From the IMG/VR virus record IMGVR_UViG_2917881069_000004: DNA of 31,007 bases. The stretch is one strand, 5' to 3'. A model generated the notes under the pieces. That model did no database searches, was not told where the DNA came from, and saw only the letters and a list, made by a program, of their open reading frames with translations. This DNA is from a virus (lineage: Duplodnaviria; Heunggongvirae; Uroviricota; Caudoviricetes). How positions within the stretch are numbered: position 1 is the stretch's first letter; each line of letters starts with the position of its first letter. Positions 5,259 through 16,350 of the stretch are shown here, piece by piece. Made by a program: the position numbers and the translations under genes.

Positions 5259-6112
5259 GCACCATCCTGAAATGGGCGGGAAATAAAACCGCCATTATGT
5301 CCGAACTGAAAAAGCATCTTCCTGCTGGCCCGCGACTGGTTGAACCTTTCGCGGGTTCCTGTGCAGTGATGATGGAGACGGAGTACCCCAGCTATCTTGT
5401 TGCGGATATTAATCCTGATTTAATCAACCTCTATAAAAAGGTTGCTGCTGATTGTGAATCGTTTATATCTCGCGCCAGAGTTTTATTTGAGATCGCAAAC
5501 AGGGAGGTGGCTTATTACAACATAAGGCAGGAGTTTAATTACTCAACTGAAATTACTGATTTCATGAAAGCGGTATATTTCCTGTATCTCAATCGTCACG
5601 GTTACCGTGGTTTATGTCGCTATAACAAGAGCGGGCATTTCAACATTCCCTACGGTAATTATAAAAATCCGTATTTCCCTGAAAAAGAAATTCGCGCATT
5701 TGCAGAAAAAGCCCAGCGAGCAACGTTTATCTGCGCCAGCTTTGATGAAACGCTGGCGATGTTGAAGGCGGGGGATGTGGTGTATTGCGATCCGCCGTAT
5801 GACGGTACGTTTTCCGGCTATCACACTGATGGCTTCACTGAGGATGACCAGTATCACCTGGCATCCGTTCTTGAACATCGATCATCTGAAGGTCATCCGG
5901 TCATTGTTTCTAACAGTGACACATCCCTGATTCGTTCGCTGTATCGCAATTTCACTCACCACTACATCAAGGCAAAACGCAGCATCGGCGTGTCGGCTGG
6001 CGAGAGTAAATCTGCAACAGAAATCATTGCTGTTTCCGGGGCGCGCTGCTGGGTGGGATTTGATCCTTCGCGTGGCGTGGATAGTTCTGCTGTGTACGAG
6101 GTGCGTGTATGA
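5255..6112 (+). CDS. dam: DNA N6-adenine methyltransferase (Dam-like), orphan
   Basis: About 285 aa starting [11 protein letters not shown] with GGAGG 7 nt upstream. Motif I-like PFAGSCAV and catalytic DPPY ([10 protein letters not shown]) are present. No adjacent restriction endonuclease candidate. Confidence 0.85.
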
Positions 6113-8522
6113 GTCATGACGATATGAGCAACTCTAGCGGCTTTAACGAGGCCGCAGCAGCATTTTCATGGAACGGCCCGAAAAAGGCCATTAACCCTTA
6201 TCTGGACCCGGCGGAAGTTGCGCCGGTTTCTGCGCTTTCAAACCTGATCACTCTGTACGCTGCCGATAACGAGCAGGAACAACTGCGCCGCGAGGCACTG
6301 AGTGATCAGGTCTGGGAGCGTTATTTCTTTAATGAATCCCGTGATCCTGTCCAACGCGAAATGGAGCAGGATAAGCTCATTAGCCGGGCAAAGCTGGCGC
6401 ATGAGCAGCAGCGTTTTAATCCAGATATGGTCATTCTGGCGGACGTCAATGCCCAGCCTTCCCATATCAGCAAGCCGCTGATGCAACGTATTGAATACTT
6501 CAGCAGCCTGGGCAGGCCAAAGGCTTATTCCCGCTATTTGCGTGAGACGATTAAGCCATGTCTGGAACGACTGGAGCATGTACGCGACAGTCAGCTATCC
6601 ACTTCTTTTCGCTTTATGGCAAGCCATGAAGGGCTGGACGGCCTGCTGATCCTGCCTGAAATGAGTCAGGATCAGGTGAAACGCTTGTCTACCCTTGTCG
6701 CTGCGCATATGAGCATGTGCCTTGATGCAGCTTGTGGCGATTTGTATGTCACCGATGACGTTAAGCCAGAAGAAATCCGCAATACATGGGAAAAGGTGGC
6801 AGCGGAAACCCTGCGTCTGGATGTCATCCCGCCTGCGTTTGAGCAACTCCGCCGGAAAAGAAACCGCCGTAAACCCGTGCCCTATGAACTCATTCCGGGT
6901 TCGCTGGCGCGTATGTTGTGCGCTGACTGGTGGTACCGGAAATTATGGAAGATGCGTTGCGAATGGCGGGAAGAGCAGTTGCGTGCTGTCTGCCTGGTCA
7001 GCAAAAAAGCATCTCCCTATGTCAGCTATGAAGCCGTGATGCATAAACGTGAGCAGCGCCGTAAGTCGCTGGAGTTTTTTCGTTCTCATGAACTGGTGAA
7101 CGAAGACGGCGACACGCTGGACATGGAGGATGTGGTAAACGCCAGCAGCAGCAACTCTGCGCATCGCCGCAATGAGATGATGGCCTGTGTTAAAGGCCTG
7201 GAGCTTATCGCGGAAATGCGCGGTGACTGCGCCGTTTTCTACACCATCACCTGTCCGTCACGTTTCCATTCCACGCTAAATAACGGCAGGCCCAACCCGA
7301 CCTGGACAAATGCGACGGTAAGACAAAGCAGTGATTATCTGGTCGGCATGTTTGCTGCATTTCGTAAGGCGATGCACAAAGCCGGATTGCGCTGGTATGG
7401 CGTGCGGGTGGCTGAGCCGCATCATGACGGTACAGTTCACTGGCACCTGTTGTGTTTTATGCGCAAAAAAGATCGCCGCGCCATTACTGCTTTGTTGCGT
7501 AAGTTTGCCATTCGTGAAGACCGCGAGGAGCTGGGGAATAACACGGGACCACGCTTTAAGTCTGAGTTGATTAACCCGCGCAAAGGAACGCCGACAAGCT
7601 ACATCGCGAAATATATCAGCAAGAACATTGACGGGCGTGGTCTGGCTGGCGAGATCAGCAAGGAAACGGGTAAATCTCTGCGTGATAACGCTGAATACGT
7701 TAATGCCTGGGCGTCTCTGCATCGTGTTCAGCAATTCCGCTTCTTTGGTATTCCGGGGCGTCAGGCTTACCGTGAACTGCGATTGCTGGCTGGTCAGGCG
7801 GCAAGGCAACAGGGCGACAAAAAGCAGGTGCGCCGGTACTGGATAACCCGCGCCTTGATGCCATCCTGGCTGCTGCTGATGCTGGTTGTTTTGCCACTTA
7901 CATCATGAAGCAGGGTGGTGTACTGGTTCCCCGCAAATATCACCTCATCAGAACTGCTTATGAAATTAACGAAGAGCCGACCGCCTATGGCGATCACGGC
8001 ATTCGTATTTATGGCATCTGGTCACCCATTGCAGAGGGCAAGATCTGCACTCATGCAGTGAAGTGGAAAATGGTTCGTAAAGCCGTTGACGTTCAGGAGG
8101 CGGTAGCCGACCAGGGCGCTTGCGCCCCTTGGACTCGTGGCAATAACTGTCCCCTTGCTGAAAATTTGAACCAACATGAGAAAGATAAATCAGCAGACGG
8201 GGATACCAGAACGGACATTTCCTGCATGGATGACAAGGAATTGCACGATTACCTGCACAGTATGGGCAAAAAAGAGCACCGGGAACTGGCAGCAAGATTA
8301 CGCCTGGTTAAACCGAAACGGCGTAAAGACCACAAACAGCGAATTACAGACCATCAGCGTCAGCAGCTCGTCTATGAACTGAAGTCCAGAGGATTTGATG
8401 GCAGCGAGAAAGAAGTCGATTTACTGCTTCGTGGCGGCAGTATTCCGTCAGGAGCAGGCCTGCGTATCTTCTATCGGAACCAGCGTTTGCAGGAAGATGA
8501 TAAGTGGCGGGATCTGTATTAA
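6109..8522 (+). CDS. A: Rolling-circle replication initiator (P2 gpA-like); apparent 1-nt frame shift near 7810-7820
   Basis: HUH-type motif [10 protein letters not shown]. Track ORFs 6109..7908 and 7905..8522 are continuous in sense (..QGDKK / [32 protein letters not shown]..) if the A5 run is A6. Confidence 0.8.
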
Positions 8523-8932: not shown

Positions 8933-9232
8933 TTAGTTGTTCCCCAAAGAGCCGGCCATGGCTGCATATTTAATTTCTTCGCTGGGTATTTCAGGATGTA
9001 GTTGAATTTGCCTGATGACATAGCCAGGAACTTCGTCACTCCACAGTTTCGCCGCGTCCTTACAGACCTTATACGCGAAGTCTCTATTCTCAAAGGCATA
9101 GGATTTTCCGTATGCATATTGCTGACAGGCATGAACATAAGCTCCGAAGTCGCCGTCTTTATCTGGCAAAGCACATCCAGCCAAGGCTATGATGATTGCT
9201 ACTAACGTAAAGGAGAAAGTTATACGTTTCAT
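8933..9232 (-). CDS. Small lipoprotein (99 aa), unknown function
   Basis: Signal peptide with lipobox LAGC (MKRITFSFTLVAIIIALAGC..). Located in the A-Q variable island. Confidence 0.65.
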   Translation of the reverse strand: MKRITFSFTLVAIIIALAGCALPDKDGDFGAYVHACQQYAYGKSYAFENRDFAYKVCKDAAKLWSDEVPGYVIRQIQLHPEIPSEEIKYAAMAGSLGNN

Positions 9233-9340
9233 GGTCTCTTTCTAAGCGTTTAGCATTATTTAACTAAGGGGTATCTGCCGTGATTTGGTAGTCCCTGATA
9301 TATATTCTCAGGGACTATGCTGAAGTAGCTTTAATTTCGA

Positions 9341-10147
9341 TTATTTAGAAAGGTACTTATCTCTAAGTTGATTCAGTCTGTCAGCATCGCGTTCTGAAAA
9401 CTCGGCGTCACCATAGATCGATTTCCCATCTGCGTCTTCAAGGCCAATGACTGTGACGGTAAATATAGCATCAGCCGGAACTTTAAGTTTTCCCCAATCA
9501 GAGTATCTATTAGGGGCTAATTTCCAGTTGGCTTTCTCACCTGGTTCCAGACCTCCAGAAATTTTATAGTTGAAGACGTCAGAGAACCAAGGGACGCTTC
9601 TTCCTGGACTGGCAATAACTCCTTTGAAGAATACTCTGGCAACCGCTTTGTCTGTTCCGTTTTCAACGCTAATATCCAGAATTGGCTGATCATTGCCGTA
9701 ATCCTCTTTCTGGAAATAAAAACGGGAACGTTCGACCTTGAAGGCTTTCATTTTTTCCGCAGCCTGTGTTGCAGAGGTTTGTTTGGCTTCCAGTTCTTTT
9801 ATTTCTTGCAGAGCCTGTTCTTTCTCTCTCTTCTCACGCTCAAGGCGAATAGTTTGTGCGTAATTTATAACCTCATCACCAGTTTTACCTTCCAACGCTG
9901 ACTTAATTTTTGTTTCGTAGACGTCCCCAGAAGACGTTCCAGCCTGCATTAGCTCTCTCATGTTGATTTGGCTAAAGGCAACGACTTTAACTGCATCATC
10001 AAACTGAGCTTTTTTATCTGCAGGTAAGGACTCTCTTACTTTTTGAATGGACTCTTTCATCGACTGATCGCTTGATGCATCGATCTTCGGTTTGTCACAA
10101 GCAGTAAGCAGCAGAGCAAAAGCAATTACGCCAGTTAATTTCTTCAT
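9341..10147 (-). CDS. Lipoprotein (about 267 aa), unknown function
   Basis: Track ORF 9341..10219. The likely true start is the internal ATG at 10147 (MKKLTGVIAFALLLTAC, lipobox LLTAC), because the upstream extension is the translation of a hairpin plus T-run. Central Lys/Glu-rich predicted coiled region. Confidence 0.65.
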   Translation of the reverse strand: MKKLTGVIAFALLLTACDKPKIDASSDQSMKESIQKVRESLPADKKAQFDDAVKVVAFSQINMRELMQAGTSSGDVYETKIKSALEGKTGDEVINYAQTIRLEREKREKEQALQEIKELEAKQTSATQAAEKMKAFKVERSRFYFQKEDYGNDQPILDISVENGTDKAVARVFFKGVIASPGRSVPWFSDVFNYKISGGLEPGEKANWKLAPNRYSDWGKLKVPADAIFTVTVIGLEDADGKSIYGDAEFSERDADRLNQLRDKYLSK

Positions 10148-10161
10148 ATCCCTATCCCAAT

Positions 10162-10197
10162 CGTAAAAAAACAAGGCTAATCCTAACAGGATTAGCT
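10162..10197 (-). terminator. Terminator-like hairpin plus U-tract in the leader of the lipoprotein gene
   Basis: On the minus strand CTAATCCT-gtt-AGGATTAG (perfect 8-bp stem) is followed by CCTTGTTTTTTT, 15 nt upstream of the ATG at 10147. A candidate -35/-10 pair (TTTATA-17-TATGAG) lies just upstream. Confidence 0.5.
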
Positions 10198-10662
10198 GGC
10201 ATGACAAACTCATAGCCATATAGGTGTGCTGTATAAATTAGCGGGATGAGAAAGCCTGCGCAGCCCCTCATGTTGAAACTTGATTTTAGCTCAAAAGAGC
10301 TGACACTAAATAACTGCGCGGAATAATGCTCCACTTTCGGTTAGCCCTTGCTGGGTAAGGCGTGGGGCCGTTTTCTTCGCCTGATCCTGCTGTATCTGGC
10401 CTACAGTATGTTGCCCTTACGCGACATGCCACATGTCAGTAAACGGCAGGTGTAGCAGTATTAGACGCAGCTATTTAGTGTGTATTAAGCTGGCTCATAT
10501 TTATGACTGGTTTCAAGGTTTGACCGATTTTCATGTCATGCATGTCTATGCTGCATGAGTTCGCATGATCGTTTGAGGATCGGTTTGGCTAAGACATGCC
10601 AGAACTGGCGGGCTTTTGCTCATGTCATGCAGGTGCATGAAAACCACTACATAAAGCGGGCA

Positions 10663-10681
10663 GGCGTGGCGGGGATACGAG
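10663..10681. other. cos site (cohesive-end region)
   Basis: GGCGTGGCGGGGATACGAG resembles the 19-nt cohesive ends of P2 (GGCGAGGCGGGGAAAGCAC) and 186 as recalled. Correct position between the variable island and portal gene Q. Confidence 0.6.
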
Positions 10682-10770
10682 CGCGCGCAACGGGGTAAAA
10701 TGGCCAAAATCCGGCACAGCCTCTGGCCCGCTGGCGGCCTCATTTAGTGGAGGGGGGGCGATGTCAGGGC

Positions 10771-10806
10771 AAAAAGAAACGCCCCGCAGAATGCTGCTGA
10801 GGCGTT
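10771..10806 (-). terminator. Possible terminator of the leftward P-Q late operon
   Basis: AACGCC / GGCGTT arms with an internal GCAG/CTGC mini-stem, followed on the minus strand by a T-run; about 40 nt downstream of the Q stop. Loop is long, so weak. Confidence 0.3.
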
Positions 10807-10841
10807 GTGAGAGTTGGTCGGTTATTGATGTTATGAGTATG

Positions 10842-11885
10842 TCAGCTTCGTTTGCCCTTAAGTCCTAAGTCATAGGCTTCAAAACGGATAACCTCTTCAT
10901 CCAGCCAGTCATTCAGCTCCTGCAGTCGCTTTTGCAGGGGCATCAGTTCATTGCGGACGAAGACACGGCTCGCTTTTTCCACATCCCCAAAGCCGCCAGT
11001 GTTGTTGGGAATGATGCCCATCATTTGCGGCGGTACGCGGTGAGCCGCCATCATGTCATCGCGGCTGACGTTCTTGATGTTCAGAAATTCATCCTTCGCC
11101 GCGACTTCCGACAACGGGATAATCTGAATGCCATCTTTTTTGCCGTTAGGCGAGTACATAAACAGGTTGCGGAAGTTGCCCGGTCCTTTAGCACTTTTCA
11201 TTGCCTTGCGGATGTTGTTCACATCCTCCTGGTTCTGTGCGGCGTCGGTCATGTACATGATGAAGCCTGCGTGGCTGCCGTTAATGTAATACTTGCGGCG
11301 GAACAGCGTGGCGGATTCGTTGAGCAGAGCTGACGGAATGGCAGAAAGGTAACCCGGCAGACCATAAATCTCCTGGTTGATATCCGGCTCCATCAGGTGG
11401 AAGACGTTACCTTTTGTGAACTGATACGGCTGTGTCGTCAGGCTGTATTGCACAAACCAGTATGTTTCAAGGTCAAGCCCGCGTCGGGTGTATTTTGCCA
11501 GTGCAGGCTCCAGCGAAATAACTTCACCAAAGCGGTTCGTGCGTTTCTCCAGGTAGGCGTTACCAAAAACCAGATAGTCCTGCACAAAACGGGTAAATGC
11601 CTGCTGGCTGAGAAGGCGATGTGGAATATAGGTACTGCTGATAATGTCACGCTTAACACTGATCGGGGAGCTGTGGTGCACGGCGGCGCGGAAGGTGCGC
11701 GCCAGTCCGTCAAAGCTGACGGGTGGCTCATACCAGCGATCCATCTGTACGCATTCCACATAGTCCAGCAGTTCGCGGCGGTCCAGTACAGGAATGGGAT
11801 CACCAAAGCTGAAAGCCTCCGCAACGGGTTTTTTAGTTTCTTCTGCAGTTACGGTTTCGCCTGGCGCGATATGTTCTTTCATCAA
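10842..11885 (-). CDS. Q: Portal protein (P2 gpQ-like)
   Basis: 347 aa (P2 Q is about 344 aa). Start overlaps the terminase stop. Position next to cos. Confidence 0.85.
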   Translation of the reverse strand: MMKEHIAPGETVTAEETKKPVAEAFSFGDPIPVLDRRELLDYVECVQMDRWYEPPVSFDGLARTFRAAVHHSSPISVKRDIISSTYIPHRLLSQQAFTRFVQDYLVFGNAYLEKRTNRFGEVISLEPALAKYTRRGLDLETYWFVQYSLTTQPYQFTKGNVFHLMEPDINQEIYGLPGYLSAIPSALLNESATLFRRKYYINGSHAGFIMYMTDAAQNQEDVNNIRKAMKSAKGPGNFRNLFMYSPNGKKDGIQIIPLSEVAAKDEFLNIKNVSRDDMMAAHRVPPQMMGIIPNNTGGFGDVEKASRVFVRNELMPLQKRLQELNDWLDEEVIRFEAYDLGLKGKRS

Positions 11886-13646
11886 AAAATCTCCACAATA
11901 TTGCTGGTATTGGCGGACTCGCCCTGCAGCGGTTCGTTAAACAGTGCGTGCATGGTTGCCCATGCCAGATCGGCGTGGCTGGCTTCTTCGCTGCGGCTGG
12001 CTTCGTAGGTCGGGCGGTTGCCACTGGCGGTGGTGGCGCGACGGATTGCCATGAATGACTGCGCAATGTCGGTATGTCCGGCGTCAAACTCCAGACGGCG
12101 GTGGCTGATAATGTCGTAGGCCTTGAGTACCAGGGCGTTTTTAACGTTGGGGTTGTAGACAAACTCCCGGACGGCAGGAAAGAACGCTTTCACGTTCTCG
12201 TAAACCCCGTGACCGACGCCGGTTGAGTCGATACCGATATAGGTCACGTTGTACTGTTCGGTCAGTTTTTTGATGGCGTCAGCTGGGCGCGGAAGTCCAT
12301 CCCGCGCCACTGGTGACGCTCAAGAATGCGGAACTTACCGCCTGGCACGGCTGGCGGTGCCACCACCACGCATCCGGCGCTGTCGCCGTTCTGCGTACCT
12401 TTTGCCGGGTCATAACCGATCCACACTTCGCGCCAGCCAAACGGGCGCAGGGCCAGTGCATGAAAGTCGGTCCAGACTTCCCAGCTGTCCACCATGCACG
12501 CCTGCAATTCGCTGAGCGGGAACACAGATGCGAGATCGTCAACGAACTCGCACATCAGCAGGTTCTGGTATTCGTCCGGGCTGTACTCCATGCGCAACTG
12601 GTCGAGGTCGAACAGGTTACAGCCGCCGCGTACCGCATCTTCCACGGTGATTATCTGGCGGTATTGCCCGTCTGCGCACAGCAGGCCGGGGGCCAGATTG
12701 CTGTGGGACAGGTCGATGTCCACCTTATCGGCTTTGTTGCGCCCACGGTTGAACAGCGCACCGGACCAGAACGGATAAGCACTGTGTGTCAGGCTGGATG
12801 GCGTGGAAAAATAGGTCTGTCGCCATTTCTTGTGAATAGCCATACCGGAAGCCACTTTGCGCAGCTCCTGGAATTTCGGTATCCAGAAATATTCATCCAG
12901 ATACAGGTTGCCGTGGTAACTCTGGGCCGTGCGGGCATTGGTGCCGAGGAAATACAGTGTGGCCCCGTTGGGAAGCACCATCGGATCGCCTTTCAGCTCC
13001 ACCTCCACTTCTTTGGCGAAGTCGATGATGTACTGCTTAAAGACGTGGGCCTGTGCCTTACTGGCAGAAAGGAAAATCTGGTTACGTCCGGTAAGCAGGG
13101 CGTCAATCAGGGCTTCACGGGCAAAGTAAAAGGTCGCACCGATCTGGCGTGACTTCAGCAGGTTGCGGATGCGGTTGGTTTTTCCGGCTTCCCACCAGTG
13201 GCGCTGGTAGTTGAACATGGAGGAATGGAAGATTTCTTCCAGCTTCTCAATCTGTTCATCGGTGAAAACGTTCTTTTCCGGCTGACGACGCGGGCCTTTG
13301 TTGCGGTTGGCGACGTTAGGGTTTAAGTCGCTTCGTTGCCGCCATTGTTAAACTTGCCGATCCGCGCGTGGCGCTCCGACTGGCGCGCCAGCAGGTCAAT
13401 CTCTTTGAAATCTTTCCCTTCTTTGTGCTCCTTCATAATGAGCTGGCAGTAGCGTGCGGCGGTGGTGAGCTGCATCTGATCCAGCGGCCCATAATCACCC
13501 CACTTGTCGCGTTTTTTCCAGCTGTGAACGGTTGCAACTTTCTCGCCCAGCATTTCAGCAATGCGGGCTACGCGGTATCCCTGAAAGTACAGCAGCATGG
13601 CCTGCCGACGGGGATCGAGATCTGCGGGTGTCAGTGTGGTGTTCAT
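11882..13646 (-). CDS. P: Terminase large (ATPase) subunit (P2 gpP-like); two apparent 1-nt frame shifts
   Basis: Three track ORFs (13323..13646, 12262..13218, 11882..12310) tile one gene of about 588 codons. Junctions lie near 13327-13347 and near 12285-12300 (ccc run). The sense continues across both junctions. Confidence 0.8.
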
Positions 13647-13788: not shown

Positions 13789-14621
13789 ATGACAGTGAAA
13801 GCAAAGCGTTTTCGCATCGGGGTGGAAGGTGCCACCACCGACGGACGCGAAATCCAGCGTGAATGGCTGGAACAGATGGCAGCCAGCTACAACCCGGCGG
13901 TGTATACCGCGCTGATTAACCTTGAGCACATTAAGTCTTATCTGCCGGACAGCACCTTTAATCGCTACGGCAAGGTGACGGCATTGTTTGCTAAAGAAAT
14001 CACGGAAGGTCCGCTGGCGGGCAAGATGGCGCTGTATGCCGACGTTGAGCCAACGGAGTCCCTGGTGGAGCTGGTGAAAAAAGGCCAGAAATTATTCACC
14101 TCTATGGAAGTCAGCCCGAAGTTTGCTGATACGGGCAAAGCCTACCTGGTCGGCCTGGCTGCCACTGATGATCCCGCCAGTCTGGGTACGGAAATGCTGA
14201 CATTCAGCGCCAGTGCAGCCCATAACCCGCTGGCAAATCGCAAGCAGAATCCCGCCAATCTCTTTACCGCCGCAGAGGAAACGGTGATCGAACTGGAAGA
14301 AGTCCAGGACGACAAACCGTCCCTGTTTGCCCGCGTCACGGCGCTGTTCACCAAAAAGAGCAGTCAGACGATGCCCGGTTCTCTGATGTGCATAAGGCCG
14401 TGGAGCTGGTCGCCACTGAGCAGCAAAACCTGAGCGGACGCACCGAAAAATCCCTGTCTGAGCAGGAAGAACGCCTGTCTGAGCTGGAGACTGCTCTGCA
14501 GGAGCAGCAAACCGCCTTTAACGAACTGGTGAATAAGCTGAGTCATGAAGACAGCCGCCAGGACTACCGCCAGCGTGCAACAGGCGGTAACGCCCCCGCT
14601 GACACTCTGACCAATTGCTGA
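13789..14621 (+). CDS. O: Capsid scaffold protein (P2 gpO-like); apparent 1-nt frame shift near 14370
   Basis: Track ORFs 13789..14433 and 14388..14621 overlap in different frames and sum to about 277 aa (P2 O is about 284 aa). Confidence 0.75.
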
Positions 14622-15699: not shown

Positions 15700-16350
15700 A
15701 TGAGCCTGAGTCCCGCACGGCAGCATCGCCTGCGCGTTCAGGCTGAACAGGCCGCCCGCGAGGGCGGCAGCGTTCGCCACGCGTCGGGCTATGACCTGAT
15801 GCTGCTGCAACTGGCGGAAGACCGCCGCCGTCTCAAGGGCGTTCAGTCCACGGTGAAAAAAGCGGAAATCAAGGTGGAGCTGCTGCCGAAATATGCCGCC
15901 TGGGCGGAGGGCGTCCTGGCTGCCGGAGGCGCTCAACAGGATGACGTGCTGATGTACGTGATGCTGTGGCGCATTGATGCCGGAGATTATGCCGGGGCGC
16001 TGGAGATCGGGCGTCATGCCCTGCGTCATGGCTGGGTGATGCCGCTGGGTAATCGCAATGTGCAGACCGTGCTGGCAGAGGAAATGGCAGACGCCGCGCA
16101 GAGCGCAATGCTTGCCGCCACCGGCTTTGATGCCGATCTGTTGCTGCAGACACTGGAGCTGACAGACGGTCTGGATATGCCGGACCAGTCACGGGCGCGT
16201 CTGCATAAAGCGATTGGCGCTGTCCTGAGTGAAAGCAATCCGGCTTCCGCCCTTAATCATCTCAACCATGCGTTACAGCTCGATCCCCGCTGTGGCGTGA
16301 AAAAAGACAAACAGCAGCTGGAGCGCAGACTGCGCAATGACAGCCGCTGA
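15700..16350 (+). CDS. M: Terminase small (endonuclease) subunit (P2 gpM-like)
   Basis: 216 aa, immediately after N. Confidence 0.75.
   Translation: MSLSPARQHRLRVQAEQAAREGGSVRHASGYDLMLLQLAEDRRRLKGVQSTVKKAEIKVELLPKYAAWAEGVLAAGGAQQDDVLMYVMLWRIDAGDYAGALEIGRHALRHGWVMPLGNRNVQTVLAEEMADAAQSAMLAATGFDADLLLQTLELTDGLDMPDQSRARLHKAIGAVLSESNPASALNHLNHALQLDPRCGVKKDKQQLERRLRNDSR

Follow-up and report, generated by a model that had tools for sequence, protein, structure and literature searches.

A putative P2-type cos site in a Fels-2-like prophage, with short TGCATG words conserved at fixed distances from the cohesive end

The DNA analyzed here (the window, 31,007 nucleotides) is a P2/Fels-2-like prophage, a member of the P2 family in integrated gene order. 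Positions 10538-10688 of the window probably constitute a complete cos site, in which short words at fixed distances would be read by terminase for a 19-nt staggered cut. For this window, the result is one more P2-family cos site, which was correctly spotted in the initial annotation. The positional conservation of a TGCATG array beyond the 55-bp core, together with switches of the word between lineages, is worth a short experimental test. The features discussed are listed in Table 1.

The gene order around the site is that of P2. To the right of the predicted cohesive end are genes encoding the portal, gpP-type terminase, gpO scaffold/protease, P2-type capsid, gpM, and gpL, in that order (Pfam). 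The 19-mer sits between a variable cargo gene on the left and portal gene Q on the right, which is the P2-type location (a cargo hotspot from gpA to cos, then cos, then Q, P, and O-N-M-L). P2, 186, and P4 cos sites are alike in this respect, being located between a variable old/tin-type hotspot and portal gene Q. The 19-mer itself, GGCGTGGCGGGGATACGAG, is a GC-rich 19-nt end of the GGCG(A/T)GGCGGGGA... type. It matches the annotated P2 cosL/cosR sequence at 14 of 19 positions, thus differing from P2 in five bases, and it matches the 186 end at 15 of 19. All 19 bases are identical to bases 1-19 of the Salmonella phage SEN8 record (NC_047753), annotated there as "putative cos site," and the last base of the SEN8 record is the counterpart of window position 10662. 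The published ends of Smp131 match the window 19-mer at 18 of 19 positions (quoted in PMC3931495). The assignment of the 19-mer as a P2-type cos core is secure by homology and putative as to the ends; the cos records of close relatives also say "putative," none of them being marked as experimentally determined. The cohesive-end-like sequence that had been proposed at this place is therefore present, and it adjoins portal gene Q.

Table 1. Positions in the window of the putative cos site, its component sequences, and associated genes.
Feature	Position	Strand	Remarks
DUF6694 cargo gene	9341-10219	-	292 aa; phrog_7468; family of unknown function
12-mer copy 1, TCATGTCATGCA	10531-10542	+	junction of cargo side and cos block, lineage-specific; last 4-5 bases within the conserved block
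Distal array, three direct sites	10539-10568	+	TGCATGT at 10539, TGCATGA at 10552, CGCATGA at 10562
TGATCG and GGATCG (GATCGTTT-type direct repeat)	10566-10585	+	11 bp apart; conservation limited to the Fels-2-type group
GC-rich palindrome	10594-10613	.	centered at -59.5; consensus GCCCGCCAG-AA-CTGGCGGGC, then TTTT
12-mer copy 2	10620-10631	+	TCATGCA (right 7 bases) forms the left arm of the proximal inverted pair
Proximal inverted pair, TCATGCA-GG-TGCATGA	10625-10640	.	-38 to -23
Spacer, AAACC...AAAGCGGGCA	10641-10662	+	directly before the cut, within the 55-bp core; columns conserved at 90% or more
Predicted 19-nt 5' cohesive-end sequence, GGCGTGGCGGGGATACGAG	10663-10681	+	ungapped alignment to P2 cosL/cosR
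CGCGCGC	10682-10688	+	only strongly conserved bases on the Q side; right edge of the block
Portal gene (P2 gpQ homologue)	10842-11885	-	reads towards cos; Pfam Phage_portal, E = 3.7e-19
Large terminase (gpP homologue)	11882-13646	-	three ORFs: Terminase_5, Terminase_6N, Terminase_6C
Small terminase (gpM homologue)	15700-16350	+	Pfam Phage_term_smal (PF05944), E = 2.2e-40; phrog_74

Conservation around the 19-mer is asymmetric. Relatives were collected from IMG/VR and GTDB species genomes as loci with the exact 19-mer, which yielded at least 161 unique sequences and, being an exact-match collection, is biased towards related cos types. The block 10538-10688 is common to 136 of the 161 unique loci listed. 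Left of about 10533 and right of about 10688 (+26), the loci are no more similar to the window than random sequence, and the conserved sequence covers about 125 bp to the left of the 19-mer and about 7 bp on the Q side; column conservation is at least 0.9 up to 10688 and about 0.4 past it. In BLAST comparison with phage genomes, Fels-2, SopEPhi, RE2010, Cartapus, and many Klebsiella P2-like prophages matched 10539-10699 at 88-93% identity. Among these types, the putative cos sites of Felsduovirus and Elveevirus phages (SEN8 and Escherichia phage Cartapus, NC_070909) share the block with the window and differ from it in the left-hand cargo.

More distant P2-like phages (Yersinia, Erwinia, Aeromonas) matched only about 10624-10688. 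This stretch corresponds to the published 55-bp core (PMC3931495, PMC5694545, PMC5247547), which is attributed to Ziermann and Calendar 1990 in the passages quoted from it in PMC3931495, PMC5694545, and PMC9122126. An alignment of the window, SEN8, P2, 186, and P4 confirmed a core of about 55 bp shared by P2, P4, and 186, in which TGCAT, AAAACC, and AAG.GGGC are invariant. Its common form is TGCAT(G/T)AAAACC...AAGCGGGC(A/G), followed by the 19-mer and then by (C/T)GCGCGC. The accessible literature on P2-type cos sites gives this 55-bp core with the proximal pair only, and the distal array is not described in it. A literature search yielded nothing usable on cos-flanking repeats or on the direction of P2 packaging.

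Some phage records annotate a "hypothetical protein" over the cos block. The small ORFs found over it in the window (10546-10743 on the minus strand and 10555-10698 on the plus strand) were rejected as spurious; one of them was searched and had no Pfam match. A search for known RNA families returned one sub-threshold chance match, located outside the block.

On the evidence of the alignments, the conserved repeat unit in the block is the word (T/C)GCATG(A), present in five copies at fixed positions. Three of these form the distal array, where the sites start at -124, -111, and -101 relative to the first base of the 19-mer (spacings of 13 and 10 bp), and the others form the proximal inverted pair. 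Conservation of the words was measured in three cos types, defined by the exact Fels-2-type, P2, and 186 19-mers and reduced to less than 90% identity (81, 74, and 60 sequences). The proximal GCAT at -28 is present in 94-100% of the non-redundant sequences of these types, and ATGCA at -36 in 61-82%. At the distal positions, GCAT is present at -110 in 58-79% and at -100 in 65-80% of the non-redundant sequences; at -123 it is present in 72% of the Fels-2 type, whereas in the P2 and 186 types a shift of +3 or +4 is frequent. The upstream background for GCAT is 0.5% per position. With the three sets combined, 209 of 215 non-redundant sequences have the proximal GCAT at -28; of these 209, two or more distal sites are exactly in place in 154 and none in 40. 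In the P2 and 186 types, conservation of the intervening bases is only 30-50%, and selection therefore acts on the words and the distances between them rather than on the stretch as a whole.

The same pattern was found at the same positions when the P2, 186, and P4 sequences were read directly and aligned. All three have (T/C)GCAT at -123, -110, and -100 and a GC palindrome in the same place as the window. They differ from the window in some details. P2 has a single proximal TGCATT, whereas the window has a full inverted pair with TGCATG; compared with P2, 186, and P4, the window also adds the TGATCG/GGATCG pair, which is absent from the P2 and 186 consensus, and its palindrome has a degraded arm. 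TGATCG (10566-10571) and GGATCG (10577-10582) are Dam sites, similar to the TGATCA/G hexamers, also Dam-dependent, in the pac site of P1.

The layout also extends to satellite candidates and to beta-proteobacterial prophages. Among satellite candidates (contigs with a P2-type cos and no portal gene downstream), the distal array is kept in 10 of 11, and prophages of the beta-proteobacterium Chitinimonas keep the whole layout. Three unrelated MAGs in which the 19-mer occurs by chance served as negative controls, and the layout is absent from them. Three loci have lost the distal part to cargo replacement. These losses, and the 40 of 209 sequences that have no distal sites at the exact positions, indicate that the distal array may be dispensable or only stimulatory.

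A GC-rich palindrome is located between the distal array and the proximal pair. Pairing is specific to its axis of symmetry, about which 77%, 42%, and 54% of positions pair; the figure for shifted axes is about 25-35%. In the covariation check, which compared a hairpin with recognition as sequence, the core of the palindrome was mostly conserved in sequence, with few compensatory changes. The left arm in the window carries three substitutions (ACATGCCAG for GCCCGCCAG), which add an extra CATG and leave a 5-bp core, GCCAG/CTGGC. The resulting hairpin is weak, being no more stable than shuffled sequences (z = -0.7). A 9-mer, GACATGCCA, occurs twice in this region (10423-10431 and 10593-10601), and its second copy replaces the consensus left arm of the palindrome in this lineage; gene conversion or chance could be the source of that copy.

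In some lineages, the words change and the layout stays, which is the expected behavior of protein recognition sites. Phage phiCTX keeps the layout of the window, with repeats at about -108, -98, -37, and -28 and a palindrome near -58, but its word is GCAG(A/G)(A/G), not TGCATG, and its cohesive end is another one. The GenBank record of phiCTX (NC_003278) annotates "R3" and "R4, R5, R6 repeats" across cos as misc_features. A Pasteurella testudinis prophage with a 19-mer identical to that of the window has five GGATCT and no TGCAT. Aeromonas phage LPM4 has three distal GGATC(T) and keeps TGCATG at -28, which indicates that distal and proximal sites may have different readers. These comparisons suggest that packaging specificity has switched repeatedly within the Peduoviridae.

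The likeliest function of the block is recognition by terminase, through gpM, the N-terminal helix-turn-helix (HTH) of gpP, or both. The anatomy of the block, the conserved positions of its parts, and its independence of the neighboring genes are observed; what binds the words and what each site does are predicted. Terminase would bind the words through its small subunit gpM and/or the gpP N-terminal HTH, and the phased distal array and proximal pair would assemble and orient the enzyme. The gpP nuclease would then nick 19 nt apart at the predicted cohesive end, and packaging of the DNA would follow. The gpP N-terminal HTH (Terminase_5) has weak similarity to small-terminase HTH families; our search found no solved structures for gpM or for the gpP N-terminus. 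In a study of P4 cosmids, transduction was 0.035 with longer cos flanks and 1.7e-5 with shorter ones (about 2000-fold, in a comparison that is confounded), and the authors concluded that the flanks matter (PMC9594776).

A wider proposal is offered tentatively, and we consider it less likely than not. The 55-bp P2/P4 core might be the proximal third of a strictly phased, three-part loading site of about 150 bp (distal triple, GC palindrome, and proximal inverted pair) that is common to all Peduoviridae and P4-type satellites. Its words (TGCATG, GGATCT, GCAGRR) would have switched several times with terminase specificity, and they would be read, at least in part, by the N-terminal HTH of the large terminase, not by the small subunit. 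If true, such a site would define what a satellite must copy to hijack its helper, and it would explain the far better packaging of cosmids with longer flanks. The comparative results themselves have some practical value. They have a bearing on the design of P2/P4 cosmids and transducing particles, could make cos sites and satellites easier to recognize when genomes are scanned, and could help explain the sharp end of the defense-gene hotspot beside cos. The words also offer a simple mutation set for finding the terminase subunit that reads the site.

The cos site of phage lambda is organized as cosQ-cosN-cosB, with R sites for gpNu1 and an IHF site, I1. Lambda cosB is located between cosN and the small-terminase gene, on the side that is packaged first, and it includes the IHF site. 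The site in the window is similar to lambda cos in having a nicking site with adjacent short repeated words, which are presumed to load terminase at a fixed distance. It differs in that the head genes are on the other side of the cut from the array, with gpM 5 kb off, past Q, P, O, and N. The two sequences are not similar, and the window site is not a member of the lambda family. No match to the IHF site consensus WATCAANNNNTTR was found at up to one mismatch in 10200-10900. The label "cosB-like" in the initial annotation is thus appropriate as to function, in that positionally conserved words are present beside the nick site and a binder is predicted for them, and it is inappropriate as to location (the opposite side) and IHF consensus. 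Chattoraj and Inman (1974) reportedly placed the right end of P2 DNA at the tail, so the left (Q) end would enter the head first. With that polarity, the array would trail the cut, unlike cosB. This would agree with packaging "into Q," the direction assumed in the initial annotation.

A role in transcription is an unlikely alternative to terminase recognition. The words and the palindrome would serve as promoter/operator of the leftward cargo gene and/or as terminator of the rightward early/replication operon. In P2, the start of the old-tin mRNA is about 150 bp upstream of cos, which makes its promoter overlap the distal array, but no sigma-70-like promoter was found in 10531-10681 of the window. 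Similarly, the Fels-2-type consensus palindrome is terminator-like in being followed by TTTT, but the palindrome of the P2 and 186 types has no T-run, and the 186 terminator t95b is annotated separately, further upstream. Terminator-like matches in the repeat region of the window were limited to the weak palindrome and a weak minus-strand hairpin. The block is independent of the neighboring genes; it is kept whatever the left neighbor or its orientation (old on the minus strand in P2, orf97 on the plus strand in 186, psu on the plus strand in P4, and DUF6694 in the window), and satellite candidates keep the array as well. Dual use for packaging and transcription is possible in some phages.

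About as improbable is a block with no terminase role, which a host protein would bind or which would persist chiefly as a homology arm for exchange at the cargo/defense hotspot. The window is a mosaic exactly at the cos block. Its left DNA (9000-10688) is 99.5% identical to IMG/VR locus L025, and its right DNA (from 10539) is 96-98% identical to loci L117 and L040, whose left sides differ. A junction within 10539-10688 fits an exchange of cargo through recombination inside the conserved block. Rousset et al. (PMC9122126) describe the hotspots of P2 and P4 as adjoining cos and speculate that recombination takes place there. However, a homology arm would be conserved uniformly, not as words set at fixed positions among variable bases, and lineages would not be expected to exchange the words yet retain the layout. 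Recombination is more simply explained as a consequence of the conservation of the block. As for a host protein, the IHF consensus is absent.

The initial annotation proposed a 12-mer, TCATGTCATGCA, as the repeated element of a cosB-like recognition region. Sequence reading and repeat and pattern searches confirmed that both copies are exact; they are 89 bp apart and extend to 20 nt at 85% identity. The repeats were described as flanking the 19-mer, but all of them are on its left side. Placement of terminase recognition elements there is in keeping with the conserved left side of the site, but the 12-mer is not the conserved unit. Elsewhere in the window there is no enrichment of the 12-mer family (six matches at up to two mismatches, compared to 3.7 expected). 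Alignment with related cos regions, the check suggested for the 12-mer, found the pair in only two of the 161 same-19-mer loci listed. Absence from the cos regions of close relatives was the refuting outcome named in the initial annotation, and the 12-mer was rejected as a conserved unit. The two carriers, L025 and L095, are near-identical to the window on the left side. Another locus, L149, has 11 of the 12 bases of copy 1, and all three have the cargo lineage of the window. Copy 2 alone occurs in six more of the 161 loci listed. Among the matches listed, the exact 12-mer at -43 was found in 8 of 161 Fels-2-type and 1 of 113 P2-type relatives. The pair is absent from SEN8/Cartapus-type phages (SEN8 has GTGCATGAC and GATGCCATGCA instead), and the 12-mer is absent from P2, 186, and P4.

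At copy 1, the consensus of the relatives is ...ACGGTAGTGCATG, in which the 12-mer is represented only by its last four bases, TGCA; the copy straddles the left conservation boundary, and its left part travels with one cargo lineage. In copy 2, the left five bases are only 40-70% conserved. That the 12-mer itself is the functional recognition unit of terminase is thus very improbable, even with both copies exact and close to cos and with conserved TGCA/ATGCA bases inside each copy. Comparison of the loci indicates that the exact repeat is a lineage-specific by-product of conserved words and junction sequence.

The stretch before the 19-mer was also described as rich in CATG, and this description is accurate. 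Nine CATG are present in 10531-10662 (132 bp), starting at 10532, 10537, 10541, 10554, 10564, 10595, 10621, 10626, and 10636, compared to 0.51 expected from the window average of 3.87 per kb (Poisson P about 4e-9). The maximum in any 132-bp stretch outside 10300-10800 is three. Five copies of the conserved 6-7 bp word (T/C)GCATG(A) explain this richness. Chance clustering or a low-complexity artifact has only the shortness of the motif in its favor and is scarcely credible given the Poisson probability and the retention of the positions in more than 200 non-redundant sequences.

As sequenced, the genes for the cognate terminase are not all intact in this copy. The gpM gene is intact, and gpP is in three ORFs, encoding the Terminase_5 HTH (13323-13646), Terminase_6N (12262-13218), and Terminase_6C (11882-12310). 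In comparison with Cartapus, L117, and L040, gpP is split by 1-nt deletions at about 12283 and 13330, and the gpO scaffold/protease gene (13789-14433, plus strand) is truncated by a 1-nt deletion at about 14353. All three deletions are within 2-base runs; they may have arisen as errors in sequencing short homopolymers, or they may reflect real decay into pseudogenes. With a degraded palindrome arm on the left and a frameshifted terminase gene, the cos site may be a relic in this copy. If the deletions are real, the site could be usable only with the terminase of a helper.

The cargo beside cos (8933-10219, minus strand) encodes the DUF6694 protein and a 99-aa protein (phrog_7666), in place of P2 old/tin. 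The old/tin position in P2 has been described as a hotspot (Rousset et al., PMC9122126), and given this location, both proteins are candidates for a defense or exclusion function. Neither gene had a PADLOC match.

The gpA-like replication/nicking gene appears as two plus-strand ORFs, 6109-7908 and 7905-8522, which overlap by ATGA. The second ORF corresponds to positions 560-756 of the 852-position "nicking at origin" PHROG profile, and it also corresponds to stand-alone PHROG families. This arrangement may be a frameshift or a natural split.

An imperfect inverted repeat of 40 nt (10303-10342 and 10442-10481) is located in 10295-10490, within the presumed leader/promoter region of the DUF6694 gene. 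Its arms are 78% complementary and enclose 99 nt. Folded as RNA of the minus strand, the region has an energy of -66 kcal/mol (z = -3.75). Possible explanations are a structured leader, a small RNA, and a miniature mobile element.
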